From assembly GCA_964010765.1 (NCBI GenBank), contig CAXGMD010000025.1, positions 1 through 38,961 on the forward strand: DNA of 38,961 bases, read 5' to 3'. Position numbers: made by a program. The first letter of the stretch is position 1. The number at the start of each line of letters is the position of its first letter. This document shows, piece by piece, positions 21,001 to 27,000 of the stretch. Origin of the DNA: an uncultured bacterium (lineage in GTDB: Bacteria > SAR324 > NAC60-12).

Positions 21001-24000
21001 CGGCTCTCTTCGGTGAAAAATATGGAGACACCGTCCGGGTTGTCCAATTAGATGACTTCTCGTCCGAACTTTGTGGAGGATGTCATACTTCAGCTACCGG
21101 AGAGATTGGTTCCTTCCGCATTGTCTCTGAAGGTGCCATTGCATCTGGTGTCCGCAGAATTGTTGCTGTCACTGGTGAACGTGCAGAAGAGGTCAGTCGG
21201 GATGAGGGCAAAGCTGTTCAGGAATTGAAGCACTTGCTCAACGTACAGACTGAGAGCATCGGGGCACAGGTCGCTAATTTGATGGAAGAGAAAAGAAAGC
21301 TTGAGAAGGAACTTCAACTACTCAAGAAACAATCAGCTGCTGGATCCGCCCAAGATTTGATTTCCAATGCTCGGCCAGTTGCAGGAGTCCCCCTCCTGGC
21401 AATAAAGGTAGAGGCTACTTCCATGGATGAGCTGCGTTCTTTGGGAGATAGCTTGCGGAAGGAACTTGAAGGTATAGCCCTTCTCGGAGCAGAGCTTGAC
21501 GGCAAAACAACTCTCTTGTGTGTGGTTGCGGACTCTATTCTCAATCGAGGAGCGAAGGCGGCTGAGATTGTGAACCGGGTTGCAGCTCTTGCAGATGGCC
21601 GGGGTGGGGGTAAGCCTCACTTGGCACAGGCGGGCATTAAGTCACCCGAAAAACTTCCCCACGCTTTGGCGCAAGCAGCCGATCAGATCGAGAACTACCT
21701 TCAAAATTTAAACTGAGCTTAGGTAGCGTGAAACCTCTGCCTTATGAGTGGTTCATTGGAAAACGCTACCTCTTTTCCCCTCGTAAAGACCGATCTGTCT
21801 CTGTAATTACTTGGATTTCAGTTTGTGGAGTAGCCCTTGGGGTGATTGCCCTGATTGTGGCGACATCCTTAATGAACGGATTCAGAGATAATCTCCGTCA
21901 AGCGATCACTGGATCACTTCCTCATGTGACTCTGTTCTCATGGGCAGATCGAATGACGGAGTATCCACAACTCCAACCTCAAATACTCGAACATCCTGAA
22001 GTCAAAGCCACGGCTCCTTATATTTTCAAGCAAGCTCTGCTAACGGGGACAAGGCGTCCAAAAGGTGCTTTATTACGAGGTATTGACCCTTCCAAAGAAA
22101 CCCAAGTTACCAATTTGGGCCTTTTCCTCAGACAAGAACGATATTCACCTAGCCCTCCGACGACGGAAGAACAGAAGATAATTTCTGATGAAATCTTAGC
22201 TCGTCTTTCACATCCCAAAGCCAAAGAAGATGGACTGCAGGATGGAATCATTCTTGGTTCAAACCTTGCGCAACAATTAGGTGTTCAGCTTGGAGATACC
22301 GTCCAACTCGTTTCTTCTGAACAAAGAATGACTCCCGTAGGAGATGTTCCGAGAATCAAGAAATTGATGGTGATAGGTTTCTTCGAATCTGGCATCGCAG
22401 GCTATGATGAGGTGCTGGCTTTCATGGACTATCGACTCGTTCAGAAAGTCTATCGCATGCAGAATGAAGTGACAGGTCTAGGAGTTCGCTTGAAGGACCC
22501 GGAAACTGCCCAGGAAGTAGCCGATGAATTACGTGCAGAATTCACGGACTTTGCGGTCAGCAGCTGGGTCGATGAGAACAAGAGTATTTTTCAAGTGATG
22601 CAGCTTGAAAAAATTGGACTCTTCGTGATTCTGACATTGATTGTCGTAGTAGCGGCCTTCAACATAATTAGCTCGCTGATCATGCTGGTTCTTGAAAAAT
22701 CTCGAGAAATTGCGATTCTCAAAGCAGTGGGTGCTACAGACCAAAGCGTGCGAAAAATCTTCATGATGCAGGGCGTGGTCATTGGTTTGATCGGTACTTG
22801 TTCGGGAGTTGGCTTAGGACTGACAATTTGCTGGGCCTTGGCGACTTTTGATTTTATCGACATTCCGCCTGGCGTTTATCCTGGAGGAGACAGAATTCCT
22901 GTCTTGATTAACTGGACCGATGTGCTGCTCACAACGATTTGCTCATTCTTGATCTGTTTTTTAGTGACGATTTACCCATCGACTAAAGCTGCCCGGCTTC
23001 ACCCGGTAGATTCCCTACGATACGAATAAACCAATACATGCAGAGAAATTATGGAGCTTGCGGAACTCCGTAACCAATTTTTGGATTTCCTCCAACAGCG
23101 ATGCTGTGGCAAACGCCAAGAGAAGATGGGCCTGGAGTATGAAACTTTTGCGGCGCTACCATCTGATGAAGGGAAATGGAAGTCATTGCCAATCAGTGGG
23201 GATGTCAGTATTGGGACGCTCTTGCTCAAAATGGCGCAATTGAGTAGCCAGGGAGCGCAGCCTTGGGAACTACACTACGAAGGTGAACTGCTTCTAGGTT
23301 TGTTGCATTCCAGTGGTCAGAACATTTCGATTGAACCAGGCGGTCAGGTTGAACTATCGGATTCTCCCAGGAAGGACTTGAGCGAGGTGGCTCAAGCAGT
23401 CACTGTTCATATTCAACAACTCACACAGGCGCTCAGCGATTGGGGAGGATTACCTTTGTTTTTAGGGGCTCATCCCTACCTAACTCCAGATGATCTGCCT
23501 TTGCTTGACAAGAAACGCTATCGAATCATGTACTCGACCATGAAAGAAGTGGATACTCATGGTCAATGGATGATGAAAGCGACAAGTGGTGTTCAGGTCA
23601 GCCTTGATTATCAGTCACTGGAAGATTTGGAGCGGAAGTTTGTGATTCTCAACAGGCTTACTCCATTCTTGACGGCAATTTTTGCAAACAGCCCAATCCT
23701 AGTGGGAGAACCAAGTGGCTATCGCTCCTATCGGGGCAGAATTTGGCAAAATACGGATCCCTACCGAACTGGTTTACCTCTTAGTTTCCTGAGTAAGAAA
23801 TTCAGCTTGGTGGACTACATCGAGTGGGCTTTGGACGTCCGTCCATATCACCTCTACCGTGATGGAGAGGTGGTTCAGCCTGGTCCCTACACCTTCCGAC
23901 AATTGATGAAGAAGGAAACGTCACTTGAAATGAATCAAGAAGACTGGCTCACTCATCTGGGTATGCTCTTCCCTGAGGTGCGGATCAAGAGAATTATGGA

Positions 24001-27000
24001 GTTGCGCTGTATGGACACGCAACAGCCTCAGGATGTGATGGCGGTTCCAGCATTGCTGCAAGCTCTGACCTACAATGAGAGTGTGCTGACAGAATTAGAA
24101 GGTTTCTTAATGGACATCCCAGCTGAACTATTTCCTGAGCTTCGAAAAACTGCTTGCAAGGAAGGACTGACTGGTGAGGTTGGACCGGTAAGATTCAACA
24201 AGTTGGCAATTAAGATTATGGAATCTGCGCTATCCCATATGGATTCTGTAAATCAAGCGAATTGGCTGGAACCATTTTTCGATAGATACACAAAGCAGGG
24301 TCTTTCCCCAGCTGACTTGGTCCTAGAGCGTTACCAATCCGCGGATTCGTTTGATCGCTGGCTAACTCAAGAACTCTTTCTGCATAGTCAGAGCACGTTA
24401 AATTAATCTATGACTCCAGAGGAATTACGGAATATTATTGATCGTGCTCATTACTTTGGATTGCTTCAGAAAAATCTAGACGGACAACTCGTTCACGCTC
24501 CATTCTCGCTTACGCCCTATCAACTACCATCTTCCCTGATCTCACAACTTCAAATACACACACAGTGGTCAAGCCTGCTTTTTTGGAAGGTTGCTCAAAA
24601 TTCCGATTTTCTACGAGAAATTTTAGAGCCTACTGCAAAAGTAGACGAATTTGTACGATTCCTACTCTCCTTGATCCCGCAGGAAAAACGACAGGACCAA
24701 CAGCTCCTCATCAATCGAAATGATTTTCTCTTCGAAAGAAAAGAAAATGGAGAACTTCAGCCCCTACAAGTCGAATTCAATACCATTTCAGCGAGCTTTG
24801 CTCATCTCTCGGGTAGGGTCACAGCCCTTCACCAGCAACTTCAGCAAGAAAATATTCTGAAAGCAGCTCCCCTCCCTCATGATGCCATCGCGGGCTTTGC
24901 AAGTGGAATCAAAGAGACAATTGAGAATCTTGGTTGGCGGGATTCAGCTTTACTGATTTTGGTCCAGCCTAAAGAGAGAAACTGGTTTGATCAGATGGGG
25001 CTATTTGCTGCACTGAGTCAGCGTGGTGTGAAGGTTGTTCGGGCGACATTGGCAGAAGTCCATCAGAAAGGGAAACTCAAGAATGGAGACCTCTGGGTTG
25101 GTCCACAACGAATTGGGGTTGTTTACTTTAGAGCCGGATATGCACCGGGGGATCTTCCTGATGAGGAAAGCCGTTCAGCCAGAAGAATGTTGGAAGCCTC
25201 CACTGCAGTCCTGGTTCCGGAAGCCTCCATGCAACTGGCTGGTACTAAGAAGATTCAACAAGTGTTAGCTGATTACAGCATCTTGAGTGAATTTGTCCCC
25301 GAGTCCGTCGCGGATCAATTGAAGGCTTATTTTGCAATGATGTTTGGCTTAGAAGAAGAGGTAGAAGGTAGACCAGCTAGAGAATTTTTGGCAGAAAATG
25401 CAGAGCAATACGTCCTCAAACCTCAAAGAGAAGGAGGCGGCAACAATGTCTATGGAGCAGAAATTAAAGATTTTTTGACTTCTTTACCTACGAGTGAAGA
25501 CAGGGCTTGGATTGCAATGAAACGTATTGAAGCGGAGACGGCCGAAAGTCTGCTAGTGGTTCAGGAACAGGCTCAGTCTCGCCAAAGCATCAGTGAGCTT
25601 GGAATCTTTGGATTGCTACGAGCACAATCAGGTGATCTAAGAATGAATATGCCAGTGGGACATTTGGTTCGGACAAAGGCTTCTAATGTCAACGAGGGTG
25701 GGGTAGTTGCGGGTTATGCATGCCTCAACAGCCTAACCTCAACTAATCAATAATCTGAAGTACCTTCAGTGAGTTTCGACTGTATTTCCCAAAAGAATCA
25801 TTGAGATGATTGTCCTCTGCGTTTTACGCTTTGCATCAATTGTCTAGCAATCCAGCAGGATAACCAGCGGGGACTGAATCTATTGGAAAATGTTCCAATT
25901 TGGTTGAGCCTGCCGTTGATAATAATCCTCTTGCCGGCAAGCATCCCTTCATAACCTTCTCTTGCCACCCTATCAGCAGTCATTACGAGCGGACCTTCAA
26001 AAAAGGGAAGCATTTCTACACCGGCTCTTTTACCAAATTCTGTTGCGGTTGGCCCTGGACAGAGAACAGAGACGGTCACTCCAGTCCCTCTGAGTTCTTC
26101 ATCCAATGCTTCTGAATAGTGGAGGACATAGGCCTTTGAAGCAGCATAAGCTGCCATGTTGGGAATCGGTTGAAAGGCTGCGGTACTGGCTACATTTAAA
26201 ATACGGCCTCTTCCTTGCTCAAGCATCTTCGGTAAAAAGCGTTCTGTGAGGCCGGTAAGCGTGACGGTGTTCAATTGAAGTAATTCCTCGTCTTTTCCCT
26301 CAGGTAAATCCTGAACATTTCCAAAGTTCCCAAAGCCTGCATTGTTGACTAGATACTCCACTTCCAAGCCCAAATCCTCGGTCCTCTGACAAAGCTCGCT
26401 CGCAGCTTGAGGAAGGGACAAATCCATTGAAATCACTTCAATTGGTTGTTTTGAGACCTCCATCAGGTCATGCCTGACTTTTTCAAGCACTTCCAGTTGG
26501 CGTGAGACTAGAATCAGTGAAATTTGATCTTTAGCAAAACATCTGGCGATTTCACGTCCGATTCCAGTTGAAGCTCCGGTAACCAGCGCATAGGATTGCA
26601 TTTAAACTTTTTGGCCTAAGGAAATTGAATGGAAAGGATTGCGCAATCGTTACGACTATTGGGTGATGAGACCCGTTTGAGGCTGCTGAGGTTGCTTTCT
26701 GAGCAGGCCTTGAATGTCAGTGAACTTACCCAGATCTTGGGCCTGGCTCAATCTGGTATTTCACGGCATTTGAGCCATTTGCGCAAGATGGGTGTGATTC
26801 AGGAACGCAAAGAAGGGGTATGGTCCTATTATCAGTTGACTCCATTGATTGACCAGGATAATGATCTCAGACTCTTTGCTCAGTATTTACATCAACAACT
26901 CGAAGAACTTGATGACCCGCACCATGACCAAGTTCGGTTACAGGAAATTTTACATCAACGCCGACTGGGAGGCCCCGGACTCAACGAGAAACTATTAGAA

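Follow-up and report, generated by a model that had tools for sequence, protein, structure and literature searches.

A glutamate-cysteine ligase (GCL) of the GCS2 family and a eukaryote-type glutathione synthetase (GSS) are encoded side by side on a 38,961-nt contig of an uncultured SAR324 bacterium (hereafter, the window). The reading that we consider fairly probable as a whole is that the two enzymes form a working two-step pathway, that this GSS displaced the bacterial synthetase GshB across the window's order, that the two genes were paired late, in the window's genus (g1), and that the GSS belongs to an all-bacterial clade that is a deep sister of the eukaryotic enzymes. The GCS2 ligase would join glutamate and cysteine, and the permuted ATP-grasp synthetase would add glycine in an ATP-dependent reaction, like the human, yeast and plant GSS.

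Gene organization

Both ORFs lie where the genome-wide survey's note had placed them, the 3-nt gap included (Table 1). The GCL gene ends with a TAA codon (24404-24406) and the GSS gene starts with an ATG at 24410; on this reading of the sequence the genes are close enough to allow translational coupling, and no clear Shine-Dalgarno motif was seen upstream of the GSS ATG at the junction. The inverted repeat that follows the GSS gene is a possible bidirectional terminator, a weak one because the scan as a whole returned 9 sites against 8.3 expected from shuffled sequence, i.e. no excess. The FtsX permease gene may share a transcript with the GCL-GSS pair; its product is outside the glutathione pathway. 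The permease, the SDR and the ArsR-HTH/methyltransferase are found at the same positions and in the same order in the genus-mate G057.

Table 1. Features of the GCL-GSS region, in window coordinates
Feature	Coordinates	Strand	Remarks
LolC/E- or MacB-type FtsX permease	21728..23029	+	PF02687 and PF12704; ends 21 nt before GCL
Glutamate-cysteine ligase (GCL), GCS2 family	23051..24406	+	ORF of 451 aa; predicted step 1 of glutathione synthesis
Spacer TCT	24407..24409	+	3 nt, between GCL stop codon and GSS ATG
Eukaryote-type glutathione synthetase (GSS)	24410..25753	+	ORF of 447 aa; circularly permuted ATP-grasp; predicted step 2
Inverted repeat CTGAAGGTACTTCAG	25755..25769		Right after GSS stop, between the convergent GSS and SDR genes
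Short-chain dehydrogenase (SDR)	25798..26601	-	PF00106, 152.3 bits; convergent with GSS
ArsR-type HTH fused to SAM-dependent methyltransferase domain	26629..27555	+	PF01022 and PF13847/PF08241

Expression of the pair, which may be co-transcribed, is hinted at by RNA libraries. Seventeen RNA-library runs contain 40-55% of the window's words, and in four out of four runs assembled contigs cover both GCL and GSS and bridge their junction; the interval between permease and GCL (23029-23051) is bridged in X1, X2 and X3. These are assembled contigs 95-99% alike, not transcripts, and DNA carry-over is possible.

The adjacency of GCL and GSS is found only in genus g1, namely in G000 (the window's genome), G051, G055, G056 and G057; in G054, also of g1, the contig breaks off at the expected place of GSS. 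Outside g1 the GSS gene adjoins housekeeping genes (mreB, hisD, ftsA, genes for HD-domain proteins), and no mobile-element genes were seen beside it in these loci. The operon had been taken for a trait of the lineage; on this distribution, the 3-nt-spaced pair would have arisen late, by a rearrangement in the window's genus alone.

The glutamate-cysteine ligase

The GCL matches PF04107 (GCS2) with 165.8 bits (cut-off 21) and aligns over its full length (residues 11-430) with the plant GCL structures 2gwc and 6gmo (E 9e-55), 2GWC being the Brassica juncea enzyme. Its top NCBIfam match is the plant-type equivalog TIGR01436, with 242 bits against a cut-off of 463.15, so that "plant-type" names the nearest type and not an equivalog. 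The window GCL is thus a divergent relative of the plant/alphaproteobacterial type. GCL homologues are present in 79 of the 88 SAR324-phylum genomes, and their identity to the window protein declines with taxonomic distance, from 95-98% in five genus-mates and 63% in the sixth (G057) to 40-49% in the window's family (f1), 31-35% in f2 and 27-34% in f5-f7.

The eukaryote-type glutathione synthetase

Assignment of the second protein to the eukaryote-type family is borne out by several lines of evidence: (i) it matches PF03917 with 290 bits (cut-off 25; residues 24-442) and, inserted within that domain, PF03199 with 84.2 bits (cut-off 20.9; residues 180-277); (ii) it scores 341.1 bits with TIGR01986 (glut_syn_euk; profile positions 27-471 of 473), above the equivalog cut-off of 329.8 by a small margin; and (iii) it is collinear over its full length with human GSS (2hgs, E 3.1e-73; query 6-440, chain 19-469), with further structure matches to 8fbz, 5oes, 3kaj (E 3.8e-64) and 1m0t. 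It is the only PF03917 match in the window's genome. The protein shares 37-41% identity with the labelled eukaryotic representatives; the 40% identity to human GSS had been read as a signal in itself, but the window protein is equally distant from the GSS of other SAR324 genera (31-44%).

The window enzyme carries R125, E144, N146, S149, S151, E214, N216, Q220, R267, Y270, K305, K364, E368, N373, E425, R450 and K452 (human numbering), which we take to be the ATP/Mg and gamma-glutamylcysteine binding positions, and it keeps the glycine-rich loop KPQREGGGNN. In an alignment of 30 SAR324 rows, 14 of these 17 residues are invariant, as are D127 and G369-371; the invariant set includes R125, D127, E144, N146, Q220, R267, Y270, K305, K364, E368, G369-371, N373, E425 and R450, and the S149, S151 and K452 columns vary in some rows. 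With the eukaryotic enzymes (human 2HGS, yeast Gsh2 1M0T/1M0W, potato GS 5OES) it thus has in common the two Pfam domains in the same order, the circular permutation of the ATP-grasp fold as read from the collinear alignment, the glycine-rich loop and the columns that contact ATP, Mg and gamma-glutamylcysteine. It differs from them in being bacterial and chromosomally encoded, 3 nt behind the ligase gene in the window's genus, and in its specificity loop (see below); at 447 aa it falls about 27 residues short of human GSS (474 aa).

Distribution in the SAR324 phylum and probable displacement of GshB

A six-frame profile search for PF03917 over 88 phylum genomes (the window's and 87 others) found the family in 64. 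Among the other genomes it is present in 63/87 of the phylum, 5/8 of the genus, 37/44 of the family and 56/63 of the order, slightly more than the 57/87, 4/8, 33/44 and 51/63 counted earlier. By family, it occurs in 37/44 genomes of f1, 19/19 of f2, 0/5 of f3-f6 and 7/19 of f7, the f7 holders all belonging to two large-genome genera, g36 and g37. GSS is therefore present in 57 of the 64 genomes of the window's order (f1 and f2) and in only 7 of the 24 elsewhere, which does not fit a phylum-wide trait.

No GshB was detected in the window's genome (G000, 92.4% complete), which has no match to PF02955 or TIGR01380, in agreement with the survey. The E. coli-type GshB (TIGR01380, PF02951/PF02955) carries out the reaction of the eukaryote type (EC 6.3.2.3) and shares its ATP-grasp ancestry, but shows no detectable sequence match with the window GSS; a passage of PMC2876114, citing Polekhina 1999, relates the two types by circular permutation. 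TIGR01380 is matched over its cut-off in 12 of the 88 genomes, all of them in f3, f5, f6 or f7, outside the window's order, and none of the 12 also has PF03917. Full-length GshB-like genes are present in the f1 genera g9 and g12, their 214-231 bits falling short of the cut-off of 299. The complementary ranges of GshB and GSS, together with the phylum-wide ligase, fit an old displacement of GshB: the eukaryote-type GSS most likely took its place early in the order, at the base of f1 and f2, and would then have been inherited vertically. The placement at the base of the order is an argument from parsimony, because it was drawn from family and order codes.

Phylogeny and other bacterial holders

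The main GSS tree is unrooted and has 122 rows, 59 of which are without a taxon label. An all-bacterial side (59 rows) is separated from a eukaryote side (63 rows) with a support of 100/100, and the same split receives an SH-aLRT of 100 under LG+C20 (48 rows) and 99 with FastTree (196 rows). The SAR324 sequences fall within the all-bacterial clade, together with Eremiobacterota/UBP9, Armatimonadota and Desulfurispirillum, and no eukaryotic group encloses them. The labelled bacteria on the eukaryote side are of Thiotrichales/Methylococcaceae type (Gammaproteobacteria), plus one Nannocystis-labelled MAG. The SAR324-containing clade thus appears as a deep sister of the eukaryotic enzymes rather than as an offshoot of any eukaryotic group, and midpoint and minimum-variance rooting both place the root on the bacteria-eukaryote branch.

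Within the bacterial clade, the f2 sequences form a group at 94/94, and f1 forms another at 95/86, in which f7 is nested at 98/97 and which also takes in Desulfurispirillum; the enzyme of Desulfurispirillum indicum S5 (WP_013505919.1, "glutathione synthase") is of the same family. The f7 enzymes are as close to the window GSS (37.5-42% identity) as those of f1 (34.5-44%), and a further transfer inside the phylum, to the two f7 genera, is probable. Three AU tests rejected no alternative; a position of f7 outside f1+f2 gave p 0.101, so the test is also compatible with a GSS already present in the last shared ancestor of these three families and later losses. The claim of an old, vertically kept trait is supported within the order, where the 57/64 genomes and the f2 clade point to a long and largely vertical residence, along with the housekeeping neighbours, the ordinary GC content and the separate clade of f1; for the phylum as a whole it is not supported.

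A contig scan with a single peptide pattern confirmed 83 GSS loci. In the other bacterial lineages checked the enzyme is patchier than in the SAR324 order, with 24/151 genomes in the Eremiobacterota-type phylum and 2/55 in the Thiomargarita order. Close relatives of the window protein, MAG proteins included, are already named "glutathione synthase" by NCBI and JGI; no discussion of bacterial members of this family was found in the literature searched.

Alternative origins and products

The survey's note had proposed that SAR324 was a donor or recipient lineage in the history of eukaryotic glutathione synthesis. A GSS that is ancestral and phylum-wide in SAR324, with SAR324 specifically as donor or recipient of the eukaryotic enzyme, would agree with the majority of phylum genomes that have the gene, with the consistency of the order against the patchy holders elsewhere, with the AU result for f7, and with a bacterial clade whose deep diversity lies mostly in SAR324. 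Under the C20 model, moreover, SAR324 is not monophyletic: an Eremiobacterota group joins f1, leaving the SAR324 families paraphyletic to the other bacterial holders with a weak support of 81, and if the root of the tree lay within SAR324 or the Eremiobacterota branch, SAR324 would become the sister or the ancestor of the eukaryotes. We nevertheless regard this history as unlikely, given the scarcity of GSS outside the order, where all 12 GshB genomes lie, and a side of the 100/100 split that SAR324 occupies jointly with three other bacterial groups. If the root is placed between bacteria and eukaryotes, as both rootings have it, SAR324's sisters are these bacteria and not the eukaryotes, and it is a gammaproteobacterial clade, not SAR324, that falls on the eukaryote side. 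Neither a donation of the enzyme by SAR324 to eukaryotes nor its receipt from them is shown by the data, and the tree, being unrooted, gives no direction for any transfer. That the gene was recently captured from an alga or protist, by this bacterium or within its genus, or that the bin is contaminated with eukaryotic DNA, might be suggested by the family's "eukaryotic" name, its level of identity to eukaryotic representatives and its rarity among bacteria in the survey's table; it is extremely improbable. The gene has no introns, its GC is ordinary for the window, and it is flanked on the 39-kb contig by bacterial genes, alaS and the lolE-like permease gene among them; identical or nearly identical copies were found on many independent contigs. 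These features, the order-wide presence and the position outside all eukaryotic groups at full support contradict such an event.

As to the product, the enzyme is predicted to make glutathione from gamma-Glu-Cys, glycine and ATP, and a GSS-family ligase that attaches a residue X different from glycine, giving an analogue gamma-Glu-Cys-X, is quite unlikely. What speaks for an analogue is the specificity loop, GGVVAG in the window against G459-G-V-A-A-G464 in human GSS, an alanine-rich loop presumably linked to glycine as third substrate. Its first alanine (A462) is replaced by V in the window. Serine predominates at this position among the 30 SAR324 rows (20 S, 8 C, 2 V), against A in 7 of 9 labelled eukaryotes; the V could therefore mean that the third substrate is other than glycine. 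The Eremiobacterota/UBP9 loop is much more divergent still (GLV[L/I]GG), and in soybean homoglutathione synthetase (3kaj) changes at two loop positions switch glycine to beta-alanine. Glutathione is favoured by the TIGR01986 score above the equivalog cut-off, by the conservation of every gamma-glutamylcysteine and ATP contact column in the window enzyme, and by a labelled chytrid GSS that likewise carries S at the A462 position. Typical glutathione-dependent enzymes are also encoded in the window's genome, namely GloB (TIGR03413, 277.8 bits, above cut-off), five GST_N_3 matches and two glutathione peroxidase matches; with the GCL gene next door, they lend the predicted reaction indirect support.

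Taken together, the GCS2 ligase would be an old, phylum-wide SAR324 gene, and the eukaryote-type GSS a trait of one order. The enzyme family is already known; what is new is its distribution.

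The gene pair

Both open reading frames of the pair, a glutamate-cysteine ligase (GCL) and a glutathione synthetase (GSS), are present where the genome-wide survey's note had placed them, and reading of the sequence confirmed that the GCL stop codon TAA and the GSS ATG are 3 bases apart (TCT). The synthetase is of the eukaryote type, as proposed in that note. Indeed, it matches PF03917 (290 bits) and PF03199 (84.2 bits), scores 341.1 bits with TIGR01986 glut_syn_euk, for which the equivalog cut-off is 329.8, and is collinear with human GSS (2hgs; E 3.1e-73, residues 6-440 against 19-469); the enzymes of potato, soybean, yeast and trypanosome likewise match it. 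The description of the ligase as plant-type holds in part: GCL carries a GCS2 domain (PF04107, 165.8 bits) and the plant structures 2gwc/6gmo align over its full length (E 9e-55), but its 242 bits against the plant-type equivalog TIGR01436 are below the cut-off of 463, and it is best regarded as related to the plant type but divergent from it, not as an equivalog. In G000, the genome of the window (3.86 Mb in 266 contigs, 92.4% complete), PF03917 matches once. It was also correctly noted that no gene for the usual bacterial synthetase, GshB, is found in this 92.4% complete genome (0 matches to PF02955 and 0 to TIGR01380). The glutathione pathway is real, intact and built on a known enzyme family.

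Features in the window and in other SAR324 genomes (C-numbers, contigs; L-numbers, loci; X-numbers, RNA-library runs)
Feature	Location	Strand	Type
GCL, 451 aa	window 23051-24406	+	ORF
GSS, 447 aa	window 24410-25753	+	ORF
Junction-bridging contig, run X1	window 23786-25209
Junction-bridging contig, run X2	window 23786-24604
Junction-bridging contig, run X3	window 23822-24661
Junction-bridging contig, run X6	window 23756-24501
Opp/Dpp-type peptide ABC transporter	window 4942-10951
GC drop to 0.37-0.39	window 7001-9000
ArsR-type HTH fused to SAM-dependent methyltransferase	window 26629-27555
HD/HD_5-domain gene upstream of GSS, family f2	L038:4782-6200
HD/HD_5-domain gene upstream of GSS, family f2	L044:1556-2947
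GshB-like gene and second GCL-like gene	G076:C120:49759-52082
GSS in two pieces	G035:C5:17176-18476
Two PF14403 genes (L135, L136)	G000:C11:52186-62090

Gene neighbourhood and expression

An operon, the term used in the earlier note, is not borne out as a trait of the lineage: adjacency of GCL and GSS is limited to the window's genus, g1 (G000, G051, G055, G056 and G057; in G054, also of g1, the contig stops where GSS would lie). In G057, GSS and GCL are only 56% and 63% identical to those of the window, yet a five-gene order (permease, GCL, GSS, SDR, ArsR-methyltransferase) is kept. In other genera GSS and GCL lie well away from each other: at 3.235 Mb and 1.474 Mb, respectively, in G039, a closed genome, and at a distance of 120 kb in G040 and 13 kb in G046. 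Beyond g1, GSS adjoins housekeeping genes (mreB, hisD, ftsA, HD-domain proteins), and no mobile-element genes were seen among these neighbours. The GC content near the pair is normal for the window. The fused ArsR-type gene lies two genes downstream of GSS and occupies the same place in G057. In two genera of f2, the other family of the window's order, GSS is immediately preceded, on its own strand, by an HD/HD_5-domain gene, whose stop overlaps the GSS start in L044; this looks like a family-level conserved pairing.

The pathway is probably expressed. Seventeen metatranscriptome runs (17 coded studies) contain 40-55% of the sampled words of positions 22800-25900, and in the four runs examined, contigs 95-99% alike cover GCL and GSS and bridge their junction in every case, although RNA libraries may contain carried-over DNA and a contig should not be equated with a transcript. 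In X1, X2 and X3, contigs also span the next junction upstream, from the permease gene to GCL. The 3' half of GSS has no RNA contig cover in X2, X3 and X6, and such holes prove nothing. A promoter and terminator scan of 18500-27000 yielded counts no higher than chance would give (9 for 8.8 expected, and 9 for 8.3); a 15-nt inverted repeat follows just after the GSS stop codon.

Active site and use of glutathione

The columns corresponding to human R125, D127, E144, N146, Q220, R267, Y270 and K305, and to K364, E368, G369-371, N373, E425 and R450, are invariant in the 30 SAR324 sequences aligned, and S149, S151, E214, N216 and K452 (human numbering) are likewise kept in the window's GSS. The roles ascribed to these residues are those described in the human GSS literature. 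The alanine-rich specificity loop reads GGVAAG in the human enzyme and GGVVAG in the window's; at the position of its first alanine the 30 SAR324 sequences have S (20), C (8) or V (2), and labelled eukaryotes have A in seven of nine and S in a chytrid. We infer that the product of the window's GSS is glutathione. In a clade of UBP9, Eremiobacterota and Armatimonadota sequences, all 17 rows (L109, L113 and L126 among them) have GLV[L/I]GG instead of GGVAAG, which hints at another third substrate, and the variable loop across bacterial clades suggests possible product diversity. At L126, GSS adjoins a hydroxyacylglutathione hydrolase-like gene (PF16123 and PF00753), despite the loop of the GLV[L/I]GG type.

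As for glutathione-using proteins, G000 encodes a GloB over cut-off (TIGR03413, 277.8 bits), five matches to the GST N-terminal domain and two to glutathione peroxidase; no glutathione reductase reaches the equivalog cut-off in this genome (best 243 against 606 bits). The window also encodes a peptide ABC transporter composed of an ATPase, two BPD_transp_1 permeases and an SBP_bac_5 binding protein, and the GC drop coincides with both permease genes. Glutathione importers are among the members of this Opp/Dpp-type family.

Distribution within the SAR324 phylum

PF03917 is present in 64 of the 88 SAR324 genomes, G000 included, and in 26 of the 35 of high quality. The survey's note took the synthetase for a trait of the whole phylum; this is not supported, given the counts for families f3-f7 against those for the window's order.

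GSS and GshB (matches over the TIGR01380 cut-off, 299 bits) in SAR324 families
Group	GSS	GshB over cut-off
f1 (window's family), other genomes	37/44	0
f2	19/19	0
Window's order (f1 and f2), with G000 among its 64 genomes	57/64	0/64
f3-f6	0/5	3/5
f7	7/19, only genera g36 and g37 (5-8.6 Mb genomes)	9/19

The 12 genomes with GshB over cut-off all belong to f3, f5, f6 or f7, and none of them has PF03917. GshB-like genes of full length but with scores under the cut-off occur too, at 214-231 bits in genera g9 and g12 of f1 and at 267-276 bits in some genomes of g36/g37. In G076, a GSS-bearing genome of g37, such a gene (270 bits) adjoins a second GCL-like gene, and two parallel glutathione-type pathways may be present there. 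In G035 (f1, genus g2), GSS matches in separate frames (profile 31-235 and 268-363); the gene may be a pseudogene or frameshifted, or the assembly may be at fault.

GCL is nearly phylum-wide (79/88), and its identity to the window's copy follows taxonomy: 95-98% in five genus-mates, 63% in G057, 40-49% in f1, 31-35% in f2 and 27-34% in f5-f7. For GSS the corresponding values are 34.5-44% in f1 beyond the genus, 31-40% in f2 and 37.5-42% in f7, so that the f7 GSS resembles that of f1. The simplest reading of this distribution is that GCL would be old in the phylum, that the permuted GSS would have supplanted GshB close to the base of the window's order, and that GSS would have moved once, later, into g36/g37. 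This clean order-level displacement pattern within the SAR324 phylum is new.

Other bacterial holders

A first homologue search returned only proteins at least 90% identical and hence was without taxonomic breadth. A search of 1.84 billion representatives yielded 2297 relatives, and 540 of these reached E <= 1e-30. Among the 30 for which taxon labels were recovered are the cultured Desulfurispirillum indicum S5 (annotated 'glutathione synthase'), an Armatimonadota MAG and eukaryotes of several supergroups (fish, sea urchin, chytrid, yeast, Balamuthia, Mesostigma, plant, stramenopile, cercozoan). A scan of species genomes by a single peptide pattern gave 83 confirmed loci, of which 80 were kept: 57 are SAR324-like by identity to the phylum set, and the other 23 include Vulcanimicrobiota/Eremiobacterota, UBP9, Thiomargarita, Thiotrichales, Methylococcaceae and further Gammaproteobacteria, as well as 'Burkholderiales', Selenomonadaceae and Nannocystis, MAG labels that may be wrong. 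None of five genomes checked among these non-SAR324 holders has GshB over cut-off. GSS is patchy in the phylum containing Vulcanimicrobiota and UBP9 (24 of 151 sampled genomes) and in the order of Thiomargarita (2/55); the window's order is the most consistent bacterial holder among the lineages found.

Phylogeny and origin of the enzyme

A 122-row tree (30 SAR324, 24 other labelled bacteria, 9 labelled eukaryotes and 59 unlabelled representatives) was built with IQ-TREE under LG+G4, with ultrafast bootstrap, not fully settled (correlation 0.947), and SH-aLRT; representatives shorter than 380 aa were dropped, and SAR324 and eukaryote-side representatives were thinned. In this unrooted tree, a 100/100 branch divides side A (59 rows) from side B (63 rows). 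Every labelled row of side A is bacterial: it holds the UBP9, Eremiobacterota and Armatimonadota clade (100/100) and a SAR324 group (84/68) formed by an f2 clade (94/94) and an f1 group (95/86), within which lie Desulfurispirillum and, nested at 98/97, f7. Side B holds all nine labelled eukaryotes, a gammaproteobacterial clade (100/98) and the Nannocystis-labelled MAG. The split recurs with FastTree on 196 rows (99), in a quick LG+G4 tree (99) and under the site-heterogeneous LG+C20+F+G4 model (100), which was applied to 48 rows, LG+G4 being used for the full set. In the C20 tree SAR324 is not monophyletic, the Eremiobacterota group being joined to that of f1 with weak support (81). None of three taxonomy-based constraints was rejected by AU tests: SAR324 as one clade (p 0.359), f1 and f2 without f7 (p 0.101, delta lnL 47) and a separation of the 54 labelled bacteria from the nine labelled eukaryotes (p 0.20).

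Midpoint and minimum-variance rooting, clock-type methods treated as weak, placed the root on the A/B branch. Outgroup candidates were the circularly permuted ATP-grasp families listed as look-alikes by Atlas. PF14403 was rejected (GSS alignment against one G000 gene, profile-comparison probability 4.5%), and PF03738 was not found in G000, so that no usable outgroup emerged. The two PF14403 genes of G000, annotated as circularly permuted ATP-grasp type 2 (543.9 and 364.6 bits), lie about 5 kb apart.

The tree and rooting results argue against a recent transfer from eukaryotes to SAR324; for an ancient link between the bacterial clade and eukaryotes they do not fix the direction. The special tie between SAR324 and eukaryotes suggested by the survey's note, as donor or recipient, finds no support, SAR324 being placed on side A with other bacteria, 100/100 from eukaryotes; the trees show SAR324 to be no closer to eukaryotes than other bacterial holders are. 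Nor does the identity to eukaryotic GSS carry a signal: the window's protein is 37-41% identical to labelled eukaryotic representatives and 31-44% to SAR324 sequences of other genera, a level at which the family is saturated. L131, the Nannocystis-labelled MAG, falls among eukaryotic sequences and outside the bacterial clades, and could reflect either another, independent transfer from a eukaryote to a bacterium or a bin that contains a eukaryotic contig; L127, L110 and L119, from MAGs labelled Selenomonadaceae and Burkholderiales, lie on very short branches inside the Eremiobacterota/UBP9 clades and could be mislabelled bins, contamination or very recent transfers.

A further new finding is that the bacterial members form a deep clade, which lies next to the eukaryotes and is not nested in them; it therefore raises the question of where the eukaryotic GSS arose. 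One answer would be that the permuted 'eukaryotic' GSS is bacterial in origin, with its ancestral home in the all-bacterial clade (of deepest diversity in SAR324), that the eukaryote stem received it before LECA from a SAR324-like (formerly 'deltaproteobacterial') donor, and that the SAR324 order kept it in the place of GshB. We hold this to be rather improbable. Compatible with it are the position of the bacterial clade, not nested in eukaryotes (100/100) in an unrooted tree, the paraphyly of SAR324 families within that clade (C20, weak 81), and the lack of archaeal copies in the table of the survey's note.

Significance

PMC2876114 and PMC3249071 treat the 'bacterial' and 'eukaryotic' synthetases as homologous enzymes that differ by a circular permutation, and this division into two forms, usual in reviews and textbooks, is also found in PMC10295655, where the view that the two genes of the pathway were acquired independently is repeated; PMC7278568 reports no archaeal GshB. 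In a full-text literature search, neither bacterial GSS of the eukaryote type nor SAR324 glutathione synthesis was the subject of any paper returned; older subscription literature may mention bacterial members, and databases already call these proteins 'glutathione synthase'. For the way in which the glutathione genes evolved, the key paper is that of Copley & Dhillon (2002).

Against the textbook division stands an abundant marine bacterial order with the 'eukaryotic' form as its sole recognisable synthetase, in a phylum whose sister orders use the bacterial GshB form. This SAR324 order would be a clean natural case of displacement of an enzyme by another of the same function, and annotation pipelines or metabolic models that consider GshB only would wrongly call these genomes unable to make glutathione.
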